From a virus (lineage: Duplodnaviria > Heunggongvirae > Uroviricota > Caudoviricetes): DNA of 14,606 nucleotides. The notes beneath the pieces are model-generated. The model worked only from the letters and a program-made list of their open reading frames with translations. It made no database searches and had not been told where the DNA came from. Below, one piece after another: positions 76 to 14,606 of this stretch; the stretch's first letter is position 1; the number at the start of each line of letters is the position of its first letter. The translations under genes and the position numbers were made by a program. The stretch lies in the IMG/VR virus record IMGVR_UViG_2703718848_000009; one strand, written 5' to 3'.

Positions 76-104
76 AATGGTGCGATAATAGGAACAGAAC
101 ATAC
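76..104 (-). repeat. Degenerate direct repeat of the tRNA-Thr 3' end (distal att-site remnant, left island boundary)
   Basis: AATGGTGC-GATAATAGGAacaGAACaTAC at 76-104 aligns with AATGGTGCCGATAATAGGAgtcGAACcTAC at 14533-14562 (one indel, a few mismatches). Same orientation as the right-hand copy. Confidence 0.45.
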
Positions 105-152
105 TCCACAATCAATTGATTTATAATACATTTAATTCATTCCATTTAACTT

Positions 153-177
153 GATACCCCCAAAGATACCCCCATTT
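153..177. promoter_or_regulatory. Tandem GATACCCCCA motifs just inside the left att repeat (putative integrase arm-type or other protein-binding sites)
   Basis: gatacccccaaagataccccca at 153-176; near-identical tandem at 14410-14430 (atacccccaaaagtaccccca), an inverted copy at 14381-14387, and a single copy at 6469-6477. Confidence 0.35.
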
Positions 178-349
178 AAATTTCCTATCCCGACGGAGAA
201 CGATGCTCAATAATTATGAGTTAGTTCTTACGACCCCATAAAAGTTAAAAAATCATGATATTAAACAAAACATCTTTAACAAGTATTCATCACTTATACA
301 ACATTATTTATTAATCATCACATTTGAAACAAAACATCAGAAATTATTT

Positions 350-1129
350 TTATTCATGAAACTCCTTCCAAGTATTAATATATTCTTTAACTGCTTCATT
401 ATCCGAAAATCCTTTTCCACCATCAATAATATATTTTACGTTTTTCCAGTCCATATACACAGACACAATAGCAACTAAATTTACCAGTTTAACTGGTAAC
501 ATATTCATAAAAATATCTAAGTAGTAATCTTGATGTTCTTCAGGGCATTTATCCTTAACAACCTTAAAAACAACATATACACATCGCACCATGGAAAATA
601 TGGCCATAGATGAATCCTCATCAATTTTATTTATGTAATTTTTAACATCCTCAATTTCGCAAGCTCCTTTTTCATCTATTTGTTTCTCAATAAAAGCCCA
701 TATTGCCTCTTCCAATTCACTAACAGCAGCAGATGAGCGGTATTCTTTTCCGTTAATGTTAATAGTAAAACAACTAAACTCCTCTCTTTCTGAAGAGATA
801 AGGTTATAAAAACCGTCTTCAAACCGTTTTAGAAGAACGTCTTTCTCTTGTCTTCTTTCGTCTTTAATTAGTTGCTCGTTTGCTTCTCGTTGAAGTTTCA
901 AGGAATTAATGAGCATAACAATTGTAATGAAGGTCAAGATAGGATTAAGCACACCTCCTACAAAATCCCCGAAAGTGCCCCAATCACCTTTATCATTGGA
1001 AAAACCCATCCATTTGCTAGCATTAAAGATATCTAACGGGCTATCCCAATGATTGAAATGAGAAAAGTAAAAATACCATACAATAGCTATTAATATAAGT
1101 GAAATAACTTTGATTGAGGGCATCTTCAT
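350..1129 (-). CDS. Hypothetical membrane-anchored protein with two N-terminal transmembrane helices and a ~180-aa soluble C-terminal domain; candidate effector of a two-gene cargo system
   Basis: 259-codon ORF. Hydrophobic segments VISLILIAIVWYFYF and FVGGVLNPILTFITIVMLINSL near the N-terminus. ATG at 1129-1127 lies immediately after the TAA of the upstream gene (TAA-ATG juxtaposed). Strongly AT-rich compared with the core of the island. No recognisable catalytic motif. Confidence 0.7.
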   Translation of the reverse strand: MKMPSIKVISLILIAIVWYFYFSHFNHWDSPLDIFNASKWMGFSNDKGDWGTFGDFVGGVLNPILTFITIVMLINSLKLQREANEQLIKDERRQEKDVLLKRFEDGFYNLISSEREEFSCFTININGKEYRSSAAVSELEEAIWAFIEKQIDEKGACEIEDVKNYINKIDEDSSMAIFSMVRCVYVVFKVVKDKCPEEHQDYYLDIFMNMLPVKLVNLVAIVSVYMDWKNVKYIIDGGKGFSDNEAVKEYINTWKEFHE

Positions 1130-1957
1130 TTACAATATTTCTCTAATTATATAAGCCTTGAGCTCTCCAATATGATCGCGCAACTCATAAGCAGAAATGG
1201 TTATAGGTATAAAAGCGTCTTTACCACCTCTGTTATTCCTATCAAGATTCCTTGAAAACTTATTTTTCTGAGACTGCAATACATGTTCCCAATTAAGATG
1301 GTGTCTAAAGGCAATTGAATCTGACTGTCTATCTAATAACAATCGACCAGTTCCTGTTAACATATTAAACCTAGTTATAATAACATTTTCTTCTACTGGT
1401 TGAGCAGATTCATGCTCTACATTGATATTGAAGAGCGTCTGCGTATCCATTTTAGCAACAACTAATTTTTTAGTTGGTGTTCTTCTTCTCAGAAGTACAT
1501 TATATTTTTGTTTCTCAACTGTTTTATGTAAATTCTGTATAGGTTCCTGAATTCTTATCAAAAGTTGTTTTTCAAGCGGTTTAAGACGCTCTACTAAGTC
1601 GATTGCTTTCTGGCTCTTAAGATGGTGAGCTATTCCCATTCCTTTAGAGATGTAATATGACATAACATCAAAAAAAACACCCCTGCCAATTTCATTAAAT
1701 CTTTTTATCTTTTCAGGATCATCAATTCTAAGTTCAAAATTTTGTCCAAACGATCCATCAAATGTATGTTTGAACATATTCCTAAGCCCATGTATAGAGG
1801 TTGATTTTTTGGGGACTGAATCATCTAAAATAGTGCTTGTTGTAATTTGGGTGATGTCAGAAGCTCCAGCAAAAACCTTTATGCCGGAATTCATTTCTAA
1901 TTCTTCAAAATCGTTCTGCCCATGTCCAACCACAACATCCATATCTAAGTTTATCAT
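1130..1957 (-). CDS. Hypothetical cytoplasmic protein (275 aa), first gene of the AT-rich two-gene cargo operon; candidate sensor/partner
   Basis: 275-codon ORF with ATG at 1957 and an AAAGAG Shine-Dalgarno-like element ~7 nt upstream. No predicted TM segments. N-terminal hydrophobic strand plus Gly-rich loop (DVVVGHGQ). Translationally coupled to the downstream membrane protein. No confident family assignment from motif inspection. Confidence 0.7.
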   Translation of the reverse strand: MINLDMDVVVGHGQNDFEELEMNSGIKVFAGASDITQITTSTILDDSVPKKSTSIHGLRNMFKHTFDGSFGQNFELRIDDPEKIKRFNEIGRGVFFDVMSYYISKGMGIAHHLKSQKAIDLVERLKPLEKQLLIRIQEPIQNLHKTVEKQKYNVLLRRRTPTKKLVVAKMDTQTLFNINVEHESAQPVEENVIITRFNMLTGTGRLLLDRQSDSIAFRHHLNWEHVLQSQKNKFSRNLDRNNRGGKDAFIPITISAYELRDHIGELKAYIIREIL

Positions 1958-2182
1958 ATGTTACTCTTTCAGAATTATCGTACATTAATTAAACAACATG
2001 CTATTTCCTTATATTATGTAGAAAACTTGAGTAGACGGCTATAGACAAATTCATACAATTCTGACTTTGTCTCAAAAACTTGAGTTATAACACTTCCAAC
2101 GTATGTAACGCACTGAAGCAACTGTTACTTAGAGCGCGTGTAGCCAAAAATCCCCGCTGGCGGTGCTGGTGGGTGGCAAGTT

Positions 2183-2440
2183 TTGACAGATGCATCCAAC
2201 GATCTGCACATAAAGTTTTCTAAAGCGGCGCGGTTGACACACTNNCGAAAAACCTTATCAAACCTTAGCATTTCTAAGCATAGCAACTTGACACTTTTCG
2301 CGATTTTTTCGGCTTTTTGACGTGGTAAATCTGGCACAAACCCAGTAATGGCGGGGATTACAGCGAGGTTGACACTTTTTCGCGTTCAGAGTGTAAAGTG
2401 TCAACCTGGCAAGCTGCTCAACTTGACACTTTTTGATGTC
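2183..2440. repeat. Array of TTGACAC(T)TTTTCG direct repeats (4 good copies plus variants and one inverted copy); candidate regulatory or iteron-like region between the HTH gene and the cargo operon
   Basis: TTGACAC at 2234, 2288, 2369 and 2423 (spacing 54/81/54 bp), each followed by a T-run and CG. Related TTGACA/TTGACG at 2183 and 2318; inverted GTGTCAA at 2398. NN at 2244-2245 falls inside one copy. Confidence 0.5.
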
Positions 2441-2966
2441 ATTGATGGTCTGATTTTTCCCATTCAGCCAGGGCGTTTAGTCCGGCTTCGCTCCAGTTAT
2501 CCAGCTCGTCAGGACAAGCATCAGCCACATAACAGACCTCACGTCGCAGCGTACCAATCACCAGTTCGGCATTCTGCCTGAGATCATATTGCTCGAAATA
2601 AAACTCAGCATCGCCGTCATCCATCCAAATCCCGCCATCATCAAGAAATTGCACTTCCCAGTCTAATTCCCCGGCTGCATCCAGCACACGTTGCTGTATG
2701 TCGTCGTCCGTTACTGGCGCAGGGATTATACCGTCTCTGGCCTTAACTGCTTTCCAGAACTCGCCCCACGTCATTTCCAGCGTTCTTTCTGGCCACATTT
2801 CAGAAACGGTGTCTTTCCCCTGTGCCGGTGGGCTGTTCCGCTGCTCTGTCGCCTCCACATCAATTTTTTTGCCAGACATGATCACTTCGCCTTTCTCGAT
2901 CCAGTCGTAAACTGTCTGGCGGCTTACGCCTTTGTATTTGGCGTATTCGGCTTTACTCATCAACAT
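2439..2966 (-). CDS. DNA-binding protein with N-terminal excisionase/AlpA/MerR-type helix-turn-helix and an acidic C-terminal domain
   Basis: N-terminus MSKAEYAKYKGVSRQTVYDWIEKGEV is a typical excisionase-family HTH. GAGGTGA Shine-Dalgarno 5 nt upstream of the ATG at 2966; the ORF-track extension to 3047 lacks an RBS. C-terminal half is Asp/Glu-rich. Confidence 0.7.
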   Translation of the reverse strand: MLMSKAEYAKYKGVSRQTVYDWIEKGEVIMSGKKIDVEATEQRNSPPAQGKDTVSEMWPERTLEMTWGEFWKAVKARDGIIPAPVTDDDIQQRVLDAAGELDWEVQFLDDGGIWMDDGDAEFYFEQYDLRQNAELVIGTLRREVCYVADACPDELDNWSEAGLNALAEWEKSDHQ

Positions 2967-3065
2967 GTAGCTCACCTCATGCATATACGATAAAAAATAA
3001 TTTAATGCGAAAAGGGAATGCGTTGTGGGTATGGAGGAAAGGGGCAATAACCGCCCCTTACTGAT

Positions 3066-3780: not shown

Positions 3781-4104
3781 TTATTTCATCAGATTTTTCA
3801 TTATTTGCGCGATTGAGTACACAAGCAAAAACTCGGCAGCCGCAAGAGTATAAAAAACATAGATTCGCTTAGCCCACCGACGATGAAAGAACTCCTCAGC
3901 ATGGCCGAATGTTCGAGATACAAGCCATGCACCTACTGCACACAGAGCAGGTGCAATGAGCACAGTTATAAACCAGATTGTGATGCCCATCCCATGCCTA
4001 CTGATAATAGCCATTGGTATTGCAAAAATGAATGTTAGAGCAGCATTAGCTAATAGAATATCTTTTAAAGTATTTTCAATTAGTTTTTCTAGATTATCTT
4101 TCAT
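3781..4104 (-). CDS. Small integral membrane protein (107 aa, about three predicted TM helices)
   Basis: Hydrophobic stretches ALTFIFAIPMAIIS, ITIWFITVLIAPALCAVGAWLV and YVFYTLAAAEFLLVYSIAQI. AT-rich coding sequence. The RBS contains a G7 tract (C7 on the plus strand, 4110-4116). Confidence 0.65.
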   Translation of the reverse strand: MKDNLEKLIENTLKDILLANAALTFIFAIPMAIISRHGMGITIWFITVLIAPALCAVGAWLVSRTFGHAEEFFHRRWAKRIYVFYTLAAAEFLLVYSIAQIMKNLMK

Positions 4105-4168: not shown

Positions 4169-5311
4169 TTAAAGGGAACTTTTTTTCGCCCCTTCAATTT
4201 CTTCCTGACAAATTTCGTCATTTGTAAATGAGTACTGCAGATAGACATATCCCTGAGTGGAATTGTTCGCTCTGGCCTCAATAGAGATAGTATCGATATT
4301 GTTTTTTAATGGTATTTCTTTTGTTCCCTTCCATGTGGCAGATAAGAAGCGTTCTTTTTTGTTTAGCCCCCTCATCCAGTCCTGAGGATCTTTCCAAATT
4401 GAACCAGCCAGCAAAAAGTCTGTAGTATCAGCCTTTCCATACAGAGAACTTAAAGAATTACTCAATTCTTCAAACTTGGATTTAAGAGCCAATCCATAGC
4501 TATCAGTATCAATATTTTTTCCTAAAGCCCGTATTTGACATAAACCAGCTTTCGGGGAGATCAACAAACCATACATTTCAAAATCTGCGTTTTGCTTCGG
4601 TAATTTATCAGAAGTATACAGATTCACACTGTCTGGTAGTGGCTTGAGCTTAGCACCGATCATATCTTCGATGTTTTTCTGTGTAAGACCGGCTTCTAAG
4701 CCAAACGGACCATCCGCTGGCGGGAGTAAAGGAAGTTGCCCTTGGGAATTTTTGGCTGTTACTTCCGTTTCAGTACTGTTTTTTGCGTCATTATCTTGTA
4801 CTGATGCCAGCTTAACTTCAGCGAGGCCATACTTGGCTGTGAGGTACTTTTGCTGCAACATTGCCATGGTCTGCTCTTCAGTGGCAACAGTAGATAATTT
4901 TAGTACCTTTATCAGACCACCACTATACTGACGAGCATCAGCTTTGGCTTCGTTGATTTTTGCATCTAAGCTGTCAATTTCAGTTTTAATTGAAGCCGCA
5001 AGCTCAGGATCAGGTTTTACTCCAGATACAACAACATCAATTTTGGCACCTGATTCAATAGCATTAATACGCTGTTCCAAAAGCGCTTTATTAGTTCCTA
5101 ATATTTCCAGTCTTGCTGTTGTCAGATTTTTTATCAACCCACCAGAAAACTGCTGGTCAACTTCCTTAGCTGCTGATATTTCACCTTCCGTTTGCGACAG
5201 TTCAGCTTTAAGAGCCGCTACTTCCTGTTTCTGTTCTGGAGTTAACTCTTCTGGCCCACATCCGGTTAACATTACTATACCGACTAATGTTGCAATTAAA
5301 GTTTTATTCAT
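4169..5311 (-). CDS. Lipoprotein (380 aa) with an internal tandem duplication
   Basis: Signal peptide MNKTLIATLVGIVMLTGC with lipobox LTGC. Two copies of a [QR]Q[FY]SGGLIK-containing segment (around residues 52 and 127). Coding sequence is AT-richer than the replication core. Confidence 0.8.
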   Translation of the reverse strand: MNKTLIATLVGIVMLTGCGPEELTPEQKQEVAALKAELSQTEGEISAAKEVDQQFSGGLIKNLTTARLEILGTNKALLEQRINAIESGAKIDVVVSGVKPDPELAASIKTEIDSLDAKINEAKADARQYSGGLIKVLKLSTVATEEQTMAMLQQKYLTAKYGLAEVKLASVQDNDAKNSTETEVTAKNSQGQLPLLPPADGPFGLEAGLTQKNIEDMIGAKLKPLPDSVNLYTSDKLPKQNADFEMYGLLISPKAGLCQIRALGKNIDTDSYGLALKSKFEELSNSLSSLYGKADTTDFLLAGSIWKDPQDWMRGLNKKERFLSATWKGTKEIPLKNNIDTISIEARANNSTQGYVYLQYSFTNDEICQEEIEGAKKSSL

Positions 5312-9467: not shown

Positions 9468-9684
9468 GGTGCACCTCCTGCACATCAGCCATGATAATTT
9501 TTCCGGCCTTATCCAGTGCCTGATCGGCTTTTAGCTGCACAAATGCTAAATAATGGGAGATGCATTCTGATTCTCTGGCTGCGTGTTTATGCGCCACACC
9601 AGCGATAGCAGAAATCTCAATAAGTGAATCCATCAGCGTTTTGATAGCGTCTACCGCTGCATCAGGCCATGTTGCATTACACAT
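9460..9684 (-). CDS. Hypothetical protein (74 aa)
   Basis: ORF with 8-nt overlaps on both sides within the operon. Confidence 0.45.
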   Translation of the reverse strand: MCNATWPDAAVDAIKTLMDSLIEISAIAGVAHKHAARESECISHYLAFVQLKADQALDKAGKIIMADVQEVHHA

Positions 9685-9880
9685 GTTCCACCTCCTGGCG
9701 AATACGGGCGGCGAATACCATCACGCAGCCATCAGGAGATTGCTGGCGTGCTTCCTGTTCGCTGGTGGCCTCGATGTGAATTACGCGCGGTTGTGCCGTG
9801 CTCAGGGCGATAAAACGCCAGATGTATTTATTCAGGTTGTGCGAGTCCCGCCCTTGCGGGTGTGTGGTATGATTTCTCAT
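9677..9880 (-). CDS. Hypothetical protein (67 aa), probable first gene of the replication operon
   Basis: ATG at 9880 preceded by GAGGT Shine-Dalgarno (5-nt spacing). It is the in-frame C-terminal part of the 435-codon ORF, but has its own RBS and lies just downstream of the operator palindromes. Confidence 0.45.
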   Translation of the reverse strand: MRNHTTHPQGRDSHNLNKYIWRFIALSTAQPRVIHIEATSEQEARQQSPDGCVMVFAARIRQEVEHV

Positions 9881-10984
9881 AGCTACCTCGATACTCTTGC
9901 TATCGTTGGTGGTTAGACGCCCTGCATGTGTGCCACCACTGCGGGGCGTTGTCGTTTCTGCACCTTGCATCAACAAGGTGTTGAACACCAATTTAAGCCC
10001 AGGTGTTAAACACGTCAAGTGTTGAACACTTATTTTTTTTCCTGCATACTGCATTTGTTTTTTGTAAGGGGTACACAACATGGCGACAAAAGCAGTAAAC
10101 GCAAAATCACAAACAGTTGCGGCAAGGGTTCCGCATGAAGTTATGAACAATGTTGAGGCGGTAAAAATGCCTGGTGAAAGTACAGGGCAGTTTGTAACAG
10201 CAGCATTAAAGCGAGAAGTTGAATACCGCCAGCGCCGCAAGGCCAAAGAACAGGAGTAACCATCACCAGCGCCGTGGTGTGAGGAACTACGGTGCATCGT
10301 TTTACAGGGCTGCGCCATGACCAACAAAGAATCAACCAATACACCATCACCGGCACGGAAAAGACAGCGCAGAAAGATAGCGTACGAGCATGAGTCAAAC
10401 AGATTCGCGCCCTGTGCGTTTATCCTTGAGAAATTCCTTAAAGAGTACAGGCGCACAAAAATGGGGTCGCATACCTGGAAAACATCGCGGCATGGCAATG
10501 TTAAAGAGCAGGAATAGCCCACCAGCAAGCCAGCATATTCACCATAATGACCCTCAGTTAAACATAGAGTCATTGGTGCAAAGCTGACACATTGCCCACC
10601 AGCCGCAAATCTGGCATTGTTGGCGATGCGTTCAAGTATGTAGCTTTCCCACTGGCGGCCCTCTGCGGTCGCCTTTGTTTTATCCAGAACGAAATCAGAC
10701 ATCAGATTGATCAGCACCTGGCGACCTGACAAAATCGCATCAGTCGCGCCACCAGCAAAATTTTTTGCTTTCCGGACAGTGTGACCAACGACATTTTGCA
10801 GCAAAATATTCTGCATTTCTGGCGTGCTGTAGTAACGGTGATCAGCGCCTTCACTCTGTGCGACCACAACGCTATAATCTGCCTCGTAGACAGTAAGCAA
10901 TATGGCGCAGTAGGCTATTCGTTCACAAAGGCGCTCCGGCAACGGGGCGCTTTCTCTTTTTGTAACGGTCAGAGCGTTACACAT
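9677..10984 (-). CDS. Uninterrupted 435-codon ORF; only the N-terminal ~140 residues look protein-like. Probably a real ~140-aa hypothetical protein whose stop is missing or shifted, running on antisense to the RHH gene
   Basis: ATG at 10984 overlaps the stop of the antirepressor-like gene (translational coupling). Residues 1-~140 have ordinary composition; the remainder is Cys/Ser/Thr/Arg-rich and low-complexity and lies opposite the plus-strand RHH gene and operators. Confidence 0.35.
   Translation of the reverse strand: MCNALTVTKRESAPLPERLCERIAYCAILLTVYEADYSVVVAQSEGADHRYYSTPEMQNILLQNVVGHTVRKAKNFAGGATDAILSGRQVLINLMSDFVLDKTKATAEGRQWESYILERIANNARFAAGGQCVSFAPMTLCLTEGHYGEYAGLLVGYSCSLTLPCRDVFQVCDPIFVRLYSLRNFSRINAQGANLFDSCSYAIFLRCLFRAGDGVLVDSLLVMAQPCKTMHRSSSHHGAGDGYSCSLALRRWRYSTSRFNAAVTNCPVLSPGIFTASTLFITSCGTLAATVCDFAFTAFVAMLCTPYKKQMQYAGKKISVQHLTCLTPGLKLVFNTLLMQGAETTTPRSGGTHAGRLTTNDSKSIEVAMRNHTTHPQGRDSHNLNKYIWRFIALSTAQPRVIHIEATSEQEARQQSPDGCVMVFAARIRQEVEHV
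9961..10031. promoter_or_regulatory. Cluster of GTGTT-N-AACAC palindromic operators in a divergent promoter region
   Basis: Perfect palindromes GGTGTTGAACACC (9977-9989) and AGTGTTGAACACT (10018-10030), imperfect GGTGTTAAACAC (10002-10013), plus inverted repeat CACCTTG...CAAGGTG (9961-9980). Followed by a T8 tract and the RBS of the plus-strand ribbon-helix-helix gene. Confidence 0.5.
10080..10259 (+). CDS. Ribbon-helix-helix (CopG/Arc-like) transcriptional regulator, 59 aa; not in the supplied ORF track (below its length cut-off)
   Basis: ATG at 10080 with AAGGGG Shine-Dalgarno 7-8 nt upstream; TAA at 10257-10259. Translation MATKAVNAKSQTVAARVPHEVMNNVEAVKMPGESTGQFVTAALKREVEYRQRRKAKEQE shows the classic RHH pattern (beta-strand TVAARVP, helix, G-x-S loop, helix FVTAAL). 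Palindromic operators immediately upstream. Confidence 0.55.
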   Translation: MATKAVNAKSQTVAARVPHEVMNNVEAVKMPGESTGQFVTAALKREVEYRQRRKAKEQE

Positions 10985-12111: not shown

Positions 12112-12222
12112 TACCCTCAGGCCTAATGGTTACCGGAAGGAAATCTACCCTAAGGGTGATGGTAAAATTGACGGGGAAGATAAAAAAATACCCTCAGGGT
12201 AACAGTAAATCACCCTCAGGGT
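12112..12222. promoter_or_regulatory. Four copies of the palindrome ACCCT-N-AGGGT upstream of alpA; putative operator array
   Basis: accctcagg at 12113; accctaagggt at 12147-12157; accctcagggt at 12190-12200 and 12212-12222. Located between the end of the 267-aa gene and the alpA start. Confidence 0.5.
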
Positions 12223-12237
12223 ATGCGGTATGGTGCG

Positions 12238-13041
12238 TTAATCCGGCTTTGCGTTCTTTTGGCTGTTGTCTCGGTTAATAGGGCAGGCAGTCCTCTCTAT
12301 GAGCGTTGCAAGTGCATTACTTGCCCCCCACTGCTTAAGTTCCCTGGTTATCGCTTCTTGATTTCCCCTGGTGGCAAAATCATTTTCTGGATCGTAATTG
12401 GCCCACTCTCTGTTTCTAATCTCAATAGCCTTAGCTAATGGGTCTTTATCCCAGTATTTATATAAGTGTATCGGGCGCTCTTGCTCTAACTGCTCTATCC
12501 TTGCCCTTAACTCTGCGTTTTCTTTTTCCAGCATTGCGATTTGGGATAATAAATCATCCTCTGTACGCAACTCTTTCTTTTCAATATCGCGTCCTTGTGC
12601 CTCGTCATTTTCAGAAGAGTTAGCGCCTTCCAGCTTCGTTAACGCGTCAAGGACATCGGGAAAAATTGAGAAAATTTCACCCCTTATAAATCCAATGTTC
12701 TCAAATTCGGGATCTTCCCAATAACCGGACACCAGAAAACCATTTTCATCCCTCTCACCAGGTAAACAACCACGTTTCCGAACCGCATTCAGATTTCTAT
12801 AAAGAACATCATTATCAAATTCATCCCGATACGGGTTACAAAAAGATTCCAACAGCTTAAATTCATTTACTGTGTACAGGCGGATATGTTCTCCGCTTAT
12901 TCTCCTGAGTATCCAAGTTATGACATCTGAAACATCATAATCATCACCAGCGACCTTAAGCACGACCTCAAGAAATTCACGTAAAGAAATAAAATCTTTT
13001 TTGTATTCGTTTAATTCGGCATGAATATCAATCATACGCAC
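12238..13041 (-). CDS. Hypothetical protein (267 aa) with a central coiled-coil segment; AT-richer accessory gene between int and alpA
   Basis: 267-codon ORF with GAGGTG Shine-Dalgarno upstream. Heptad-like stretch LLSQIAMLEKENAELRARIEQLEQER. Composition noticeably more AT-rich than int or alpA. Confidence 0.65.
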   Translation of the reverse strand: MRMIDIHAELNEYKKDFISLREFLEVVLKVAGDDYDVSDVITWILRRISGEHIRLYTVNEFKLLESFCNPYRDEFDNDVLYRNLNAVRKRGCLPGERDENGFLVSGYWEDPEFENIGFIRGEIFSIFPDVLDALTKLEGANSSENDEAQGRDIEKKELRTEDDLLSQIAMLEKENAELRARIEQLEQERPIHLYKYWDKDPLAKAIEIRNREWANYDPENDFATRGNQEAITRELKQWGASNALATLIERTACPINRDNSQKNAKPD

Positions 13042-14534: not shown

Positions 14535-14576
14535 GACATTAGAATGGTGCCGATAATAGGAGTCGAACCTACGACC
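14535..14576 (-). other. 3' 42 nt of a tRNA-Thr(CGU) gene (T-arm, acceptor 3' strand, CCA); attachment-site core, not an intact tRNA in this window
   Basis: Reverse complement reads TAATGCGAAGGTCGTAGGTTCGACTCCTATTATCGGCACCA, matching from memory the 3' part of enterobacterial thrW from the anticodon loop onward. The sequence 5' of this (14577-14606) cannot form an anticodon stem or D-arm. Confidence 0.6.
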
Positions 14577-14606
14577 TTCGCATTACCGAAACTCGCGTAA
14601 CCACAT

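Follow-up and report, generated by a model that had tools for sequence, protein, structure and literature searches.

A mobile two-gene cassette pairing an OB-fold protein with an AbiC/P-like membrane protein, a candidate anti-phage system in Escherichia coli islands

A coupled operon at the end of a thrW island

The stretch of DNA analysed here, hereafter called the window, comprises the 14,606 nucleotides of the viral record IMGVR_UViG_2703718848_000009 from IMG/VR. It corresponds to an island of about 14.5 kb located at the tRNA-Thr gene thrW, between proA and the pao genes of Escherichia coli. Two genes on the minus strand occupy the left end of the island. Gene A (1130..1957) encodes a soluble protein of 275 amino acids, and gene B (350..1129), which follows immediately, encodes an inner-membrane protein of 259 amino acids. 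The pair is a two-component variant of the AbiC/P abortive-infection proteins that has been catalogued previously but carries no name.

Both genes were called as open reading frames (ORFs), and their products are present in RefSeq as the hypothetical proteins WP_000609023.1 and WP_052924176.1. These entries, together with the large families of full-length homologues described below, indicate that A and B are real genes rather than chance ORFs. An initial annotation, made from the sequence alone, had described the two genes as translationally coupled, and re-reading the sequence confirms that the TAA stop codon of A (1132-1130) abuts the ATG start codon of B (1129-1127), forming a junction at 1127..1132 on the minus strand. 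Across homologous loci, the spacing between the two genes ranges from -32 to +14 nucleotides and is most commonly a 4-nucleotide overlap, which likewise indicates translational coupling.

The operon was also correctly placed in the most AT-rich part of the window. The GC fraction is 0.29-0.34 over positions 1-2000, compared with about 0.45-0.55 in most of the island, and reaches its minimum for the window (0.292) at 251-750. On the plus strand, the sequence ATGGTGCGATAATAGGAA at 77..94 repeats, with one indel, the 3' end of tRNA-Thr at 14544-14562, and this distal attachment (att) repeat marks the end of the island next to the operon, as had been proposed. Just about 255 bp of non-coding DNA (95..349, minus strand) separate the stop codon of B from att, which rules out the further components to the left that the initial annotation had left open.

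The region upstream of A (1958..2200, minus strand) moves with the cassette and presumably carries its own promoter and ribosome-binding site. About 175-200 nucleotides of this region are common to the window and to Klebsiella phage Kp4865-4, and a core block, ATTTGTYT...TACATAAT, is kept in a prophage whose A protein is 70% identical. The DNA downstream of B is not common to other contexts of the cassette. That the upstream DNA moves together with the two genes and the downstream DNA does not suggests that the cassette brings its own promoter. Consensus scans, whose output did not rise above chance, called no promoter in the upstream region and no terminator in 95..349.

Families and predicted folds of the two proteins

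Neither protein had initially been assignable, and a new family had been considered possible. Profile hidden Markov model (HMM) searches lead to a different view, as they found families for both proteins. A can be placed with the DUF7946 + DUF7947 proteins and phrog_13337, and B with phrog_8999 and the AbiC/P superfamily. Both families are annotated as having unknown function, and B is tied to abortive-infection proteins.

The description of A as soluble is upheld, since there is no hydrophobic segment in this protein (maximum KD19 of 0.88). A direct scan of A against Pfam, NCBIfam and PADLOC returned sub-threshold matches alone. Among the Pfam models, DUF7947 matched with an E value of 0.028 and 14.9 bits, compared with a gathering cut-off of 27, and there was no match for DUF7946. 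There are only 10 clusters of A homologues in a word-indexed search, but an exhaustive profile search yields 141 representative clusters, nearly all of which are 262-285 amino acids long and match end to end. When 84 aligned homologues were scanned, DUF7946 (PF25678) was found in 48 (best E value 1.6e-20) and DUF7947 (PF25679) in 45 (best 3.3e-12). In addition, phrog_13337 matches A itself over its full length (1.4e-55). From these sequence matches, we conclude that A is a divergent member of the two-domain DUF7946 + DUF7947 family. Proteins of this family have the same length and two-domain architecture as A, differing in that the A protein of the window falls below the Pfam thresholds.

The N-terminal domain of A is an alpha/beta domain of the DUF7946 type for which the structure comparison gave no match. 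The C-terminal domain (DUF7947 type, about residues 188-274) is an OB-fold, with a five-stranded barrel and a helix between strands 3 and 4, and is structurally similar to known OB-folds. Nine residues (G31, G68, S69, H144, N198, G204, R205, F217 and L238, in full-length numbering) are conserved in at least 90% of the 84 homologues. The signature ITRFNxxTGxGRL sits on the first hairpin of the OB-fold, and the conserved residues of the OB face, some of them basic or aromatic, include R196, N198, R205 and F217.

Several other assignments were considered for the two proteins. The PADLOC model PDC-M02B matches A weakly and partially, with residues 36-84 aligned to profile positions 134-180 of 379 (E 2e-4). 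This match is present in 7 of 10 close homologues but does not persist in the deep family, where 4 of 84 members have it, and none of the PADLOC PDC models matches B. A reading of either protein as HEPN was rejected. There is no Rx4-6H motif, A consists of an alpha/beta domain plus an OB-fold, and the conserved R182 of B has no histidine at the required spacing. Residues G68-S69 and H144 of A suggested a serine hydrolase, but the motif is GSxG as opposed to GxSxG. Searches of PDB sequences with the A and B families returned no matches.

There are two hydrophobic segments in B, centred at residues 10-17 and 62-70. The charge distribution (+2/0 at the N-terminus and +2/-5 in the loop) fits a topology in which both termini are cytoplasmic, with a cytoplasmic domain of about 180 amino acids. 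Hydrophobicity and charge therefore agree with the two N-terminal transmembrane (TM) helices that were described at the outset. TM1 spans about residues 8-25 and TM2 about 56-76, the latter running on as a stalk helix to about residue 119, followed by a cytoplasmic helical bundle at 132-258. The AF2 model has helices at 5-25 and 47-119. At the predicted periplasmic entry of TM2, the acidic loop terminates in an invariant motif, G51-T-F-G-D55-x-x-G58-G59-x-x-x-P63, and this GTFGDxxGGxxxP motif, along with Q80, is common to all 27 aligned relatives of B.

A direct scan of B against Pfam, NCBIfam and PADLOC, including the AbiC and AbiP models, gave no match, whereas phrog_8999 matches it at 1.1e-45. 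The Pfam model PF16872 (putAbiC), which has 80 positions and covers part of the cytoplasmic helices, does not match B even at E values up to 10, and its threshold is reached by none of the five A-partnered B proteins that were scanned (that of the window and four others). Nevertheless, phmmer searches from B reach PF16872-positive proteins, annotated "putative phage abortive infection protein", at 2e-10 to 8e-5. Among the members of the B alignment scanned singly, five match putAbiC (best 5e-18), four the PADLOC model for AbiP (7e-10) and four that for AbiC (6.5e-7). The strongest link is a profile-profile alignment (hhalign) of the close B family with the PF16872-positive proteins, which covers B residues 18-221 at 99.6% (E 6e-24). 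The GTFGDxxGGxxxP motif and a helical extramembrane domain are common to these proteins and B. Judged on these remote sequence similarities, B belongs to the AbiC/P superfamily as a distant member, one that the curated models do not recognise.

AbiC has an N-terminal anchor of two TM helices, as does B, is likewise carried on mobile elements, and lowers the production of the phage major capsid protein. AbiP has one TM helix, requires its membrane anchor, binds RNA better than single-stranded DNA and is triggered by a phage major tail protein. In published work, structure comparison of AbiC and AbiP gave no functional prediction, and the same was true of our structure comparison of B. AbiC and AbiP each form a system of one gene, carried on Gram-positive plasmids, in contrast to the branch to which B belongs, which is strictly paired with A and is found in Gammaproteobacteria.

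The inner-membrane location of B and its conserved periplasm-facing motif could also be expected of a superinfection exclusion system, in which B, helped by A, blocks the entry of competing phage DNA without cell death. Carriage of the pair on temperate phages, satellites and plasmids would fit such a role, and many prophage proteins with this function are small membrane proteins. We nevertheless consider this explanation improbable, because AbiC and AbiP act after DNA entry, and because a large cytoplasmic domain and an OB-fold partner would be superfluous for a simple block to entry.

Linkage, mobility and genomic setting

To assess linkage, every ORF of all fetched loci was scored with HMMs of the A and B families. 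A homologue of B is located directly downstream of A and on the same strand in 56 of the 58 loci that encode an A homologue. One of the two remaining loci is cut by a contig end. The other (L057, 5965-6768) has a solo A homologue of 267 amino acids and 24% identity in a high-GC prophage, where the next gene is convergent; either the partner has been lost at this locus or A is able to work with something else. There are 43 distinct A-B pairs, with identities down to about 28%, and the identities of A and B co-vary across them (Spearman 0.65, uncorrected for phylogeny). In each of the 43 cassettes the GC content is lower than in the flanking DNA, the mean difference being 14 points. A canonical putAbiC protein and three more distant relatives of B are encoded by solo genes without A, which indicates that the A partner is specific to this branch. 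For the DUF7946 + DUF7947 family, both an OB-fold and an obligate partner of the AbiC/P-like type are newly assigned here.

At identities of at least 99%, the cassette is present in 57 of 5426 complete E. coli genomes (about 1%), always on the chromosome and in a single copy. Klebsiella phage Kp4865-4 carries the same pair, with an A protein of 92% identity. Pairs also occur within the early region of a prophage of the lambdoid type, next to type VI secretion system and fimbrial genes, and next to an SMC-like ATPase gene. There are 43 IMG/VR proviral loci with the pair. At about 30% identity it is carried by IncX conjugative plasmids and by ColE1-type plasmids of 4.6-6.1 kb.

The plasmid contexts bring to mind an addiction or toxin-antitoxin-like module, with B as a membrane toxin, A as its antitoxin and any effect on phages being secondary. 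The ColE1-type plasmids have few other genes, the pair on the IncX plasmids lies between dinQ-like type I toxins, and an upstream soluble gene coupled to a downstream membrane gene resembles antitoxin-toxin operons. We give such a module little weight. With 275 amino acids and two domains, A well exceeds typical antitoxins in size and is better conserved than they are, and the pair is strongly concentrated in the defence hotspots of phages and satellites. Moreover, many pairs of this kind are abortive-infection systems, and thus this explanation overlaps with the one preferred here.

The backbone that adjoins the cassette is found in 167 E. coli genomes. In those that lack the cassette, homology begins at about window position 2246-2268, and alignment places the boundary at about 2200-2250. 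The boundary between cargo and backbone is represented by the interval 2205..2435, to which no strand is assigned; to the right of roughly this point, the window and its sister islands hardly differ in sequence. Where such islands are located at thrW, the same slot is occupied by an AAA ATPase and a DUF4435 protein that PADLOC identifies as PARIS (AriA 5e-43, AriB 3.6e-22). PARIS, like the A-B pair, is a two-gene cassette of satellites and prophages, and the slot is identical. However, it consists of an ABC ATPase and a Toprim nuclease with no membrane component, and bears no sequence or fold relation to A and B; models for AriA (AAA_15/21) and AriB (DUF4435 Toprim) do not match either protein.

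Other cargo is found in related islands. In E. coli ARS-C301 (L061, 4897-6389), the slot of the operon holds genes for a DUF4747 protein of 297 amino acids and a hypothetical protein of 199 amino acids. PADLOC gives no match for these two proteins, which are a candidate defence pair allelic with PARIS and the A-B cassette. A related island of E. coli ABU 83972, located at another att site near dinD/yicG (L062, 4371-6359), carries a lone gene for an RNA-binding domain-containing protein of 662 amino acids with weak PADLOC matches to pAgo (1.7e-8) and Aga_SIR2-PNTD (1.5e-7), which may be a stand-alone defence protein.

Distant pairs reside in hotspots that have been described before. A pair of about 29% identity (WP_001407037 and WP_001407036) is located between gpA/DinI and the portal gene gpQ of a P2-like prophage. 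Rousset et al. 2022 (PMC9122126) described this slot as a defence hotspot of P2, and both proteins appear as "hypothetical" in their Table S5A. In Tables S1B and S5B of the same work, pairs of a B-like and an A-like protein make up system #31 (49 occurrences in the P4 hotspot) and system #77 (50 occurrences in the P2 hotspot), neither with a Pfam annotation. These represent the same two-gene family, with the motif WGQFGDYxGGVxNPILxF in the B-like and TRFNxxTGNGRL in the A-like proteins, at about 30% identity to the window proteins and in a different element type and slot. The initial annotation had proposed to check whether homologous pairs recur in defence islands or hotspots. Pairs are found in both the P2 and the P4 hotspots, and A is followed by B in 56 of 58 loci. 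System #86 of Table S5B (P2 hotspot, 42 occurrences) has a canonical putAbiC protein with AAA_17/18, Acetyltransf_7 and ASCH, which shows that AbiC/P-type proteins occur in the P2 hotspot with other partners as well.

The initial annotation called the system undescribed. In fact the pair was catalogued by Rousset et al. 2022 as systems #31 and #77, although it has been neither named nor, apparently, tested. Motifs of the A and B families are absent from the tables of cloned and tested systems in PMC9122126, and none of the six systems described in a 2026 follow-up on eight unknown P4 loci has the A-B composition. The pair is not described in the papers on DefensePredictor, a domain-centric screen, the 2026 P2/P4 hotspot study, Tai and SNIPE. 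We found no literature that names or tests it, the PICI-immunity work of Fillol-Salom et al. 2022 being outside the scope of this search, and nothing on DUF7946, DUF7947, putAbiC, PF16872, the PHROG identifiers or the RefSeq accessions.

Non-defence cargo is a further explanation, whereby the pair would benefit either the physiology of the host or the element's own life cycle, for instance through helper interference, packaging or lysis timing. The annotation of both families as having unknown function is compatible with this, as are the partition systems and toxins that also reside in P2 hotspots and the lack of a direct match to a defence HMM. The chances of such a role appear slim to us. 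The cassette is found in P2-like and other prophages, the thrW island, P4-like satellites and plasmids, and this spread over unrelated elements argues against a role in the life cycle of any one of them. In addition, the cassette is allelic with PARIS, and B is homologous to abortive-infection proteins.

As for the island itself, RefSeq and PHROG annotation identifies genes for an integrase (int), a helix-turn-helix (HTH) regulator, Ant, an Icd-like protein, a DUF5906-type primase, ProQ/FinO and PerC. There is also a gene (2439-3047) for an HTH protein with a weak match to TerS/Cox. This gene content resembles that of a phage-inducible chromosomal island (PICI), judging from the annotated sequence. 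A P4-like satellite would have psu, sid/delta, alpA and the alpha primase gene, with its hotspot located between psu and int beside cos, and the annotation shows no psu, sid or delta. The initial term "satellite" stands insofar as the cassette forms the distal cargo of a satellite-like island.

The interval 2205-2435 at the boundary of cargo and backbone has TTGACAC(TTTT) / AAAGTGTCAA repeats in both orientations, including four exact 10-mers within 145 bp as well as GTTGACAC variants, and comes directly ahead of the TerS/Cox-like HTH gene at 2439-3047. This array is almost perfectly conserved in sister islands with different cargo and could be a packaging (pac/cos-like) site, an origin or a set of operator sites; the P4 defence hotspot likewise adjoins cos. 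Positions 2244-2245 of the window read NN, and about 57 bp that are present in all three sister islands are missing there, including two further TTGACAC repeats. The gap has the look of a masked or edited sequence, not of a biological difference. The last 16 nucleotides of the window (14591-14606) match no E. coli genome, and tRNA-Thr is only partly included.

Several other genes of the island have no PHROG or PADLOC match. One of these (12238-13041, minus strand) encodes a hypothetical protein of 267 amino acids beside the integrase gene and sits in a locally AT-rich stretch (GC fraction about 0.40). As immune genes of PICIs have also been reported from the integrase-proximal end (PMC11364771), the island may have a second accessory gene here. 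Between this gene and that for the HTH regulator, two intergenic copies of AAAWYACCCTCAGGGTA with the palindrome ACCCTCAGGGT are located at 12185-12223, 22 bp apart, and look like operator sites. Two minus-strand genes, encoding proteins of 380 (4169-5311) and 107 amino acids (3781-4104), are conserved in all sister islands and are backbone genes, possibly involved in helper exploitation. The ORF of 435 codons at 9677-10984 (minus strand) is probably spurious over most of its length, because RefSeq places two small plus-strand genes (YlcI/YnfO family and hypothetical) inside it. The gene proper is the C-terminal part of about 90-135 amino acids alone, which RefSeq calls Icd-like, and the PHROG matches to a "transcriptional repressor" cover residues 347-435. 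Otherwise identical islands in strains STEC276, J2 and 2017-02-2CC carry one or two IS3-family insertions, whereas the copy in the window is uninterrupted.

A possible function in abortive infection

The initial annotation proposed an anti-phage or abortive-infection system, and this is still the best reading of the cassette, which we infer from the presence of PARIS in the same slot, from residence in the P2 and P4 hotspots, and from the homology of B to AbiC and AbiP. The putative role in defence is well supported by context and by remote homology. The specific analogies that had been drawn to RexAB, CBASS/Pycsar and Kiwa were not sustained, as there is no PADLOC model match for A, B or their families. 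CBASS and Pycsar need an adjacent cyclase, whereas the operon has two genes and neither encodes a cyclase.

On balance, we lean towards the view that A and B form a mobile anti-phage cassette of the AbiC/P type in which the membrane executor B is gated by its OB-fold partner A. B would be the membrane-embedded executor, with the stalk helix joining its TM helices to the cytoplasmic helical domain. This assignment is made because solo relatives suffice for abortive infection. A would be cytoplasmic and, through translational coupling, made in a fixed ratio to B. Most likely, A would bind the cytoplasmic domain of B and act as an infection sensor or gate, with its OB face (R196, N198, R205 and F217) engaging phage single-stranded nucleic acid or a phage protein. 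Binding of such a ligand by A would release or activate B. Infection would then be aborted by B, which could act at the membrane or disturb the nucleic-acid transactions of the phage, an effect that has been reported for AbiP.

The roles of the two proteins might instead be reversed, in a manner reminiscent of Kiwa. Kiwa combines KwaA, a membrane protein with four TM helices, and KwaB, a soluble and possibly nucleic-acid-binding protein of the DUF4868 type. B and A form a comparable pair, and action at the membrane is plausible for both systems, but gene order and folds differ. In this scheme, B would sense perturbation of the inner membrane or DNA injection, and A would be an effector that binds phage single-stranded DNA or RNA and uses its OB-fold to block phage replication or late transcription. 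The most conserved part of B is the junction of the periplasmic loop with TM2, and the OB surface of A, which has basic and aromatic residues, is likewise well conserved. There are also membrane-located defences that act at genome entry, one of which senses membrane perturbation and then binds DNA (PMC13190303), and the reported effects of AbiP are on phage DNA replication and the transcription switch.

We regard this reversal as unlikely. Solo AbiC/P proteins give abortive infection without an A-like partner, and therefore a B-type protein must itself be able to execute. Neither the KwaA nor the KwaB model matches A or B. Furthermore, in many defence systems the conserved module executes and the variable one senses, a pattern that favours the TM region of B as the effector.

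A further and more tentative proposal extends the gated-executor arrangement to the whole family. It is conceivable, although we would not expect it on present evidence, that the DUF7946-DUF7947 protein represents an unrecognised class of infection sensor, in which capture of a phage-specific single-stranded nucleic acid or of a phage structural protein by the OB-fold directly gates a membrane executor of the AbiC/P type. The nucleic-acid-binding region of AbiP has been proposed to be OB-like. If this is the case, A might supply in trans what AbiP has in cis.

Few abortive-infection proteins have been known for as long as AbiC and AbiP, and how these two act has yet to be explained. The enterobacterial branch described here travels with a well-folded OB-fold partner as a small cassette, of 1.6 kb plus about 0.2 kb of upstream DNA, and this obligate partner offers a tractable route into the AbiC/P family. 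Because the cassette is small and sits in E. coli elements that exchange PARIS and other validated systems, it is easy to clone and test in E. coli. If no defence were found, the view that the two proteins belong to no recognisable family would still be corrected, and DUF7947 would still gain a fold assignment. If defence is confirmed, the pair would be a family to be named that current PADLOC models miss, and it could show how AbiC/P proteins are triggered. Should the OB-fold proteins indeed prove to be a class of sensors, they would provide the first mechanistic handle on a superfamily whose mode of action has stayed obscure ever since the description of AbiC in 1992. They would also delimit a two-component AbiC/P branch that is widespread in the phages, satellites and plasmids of Gammaproteobacteria.

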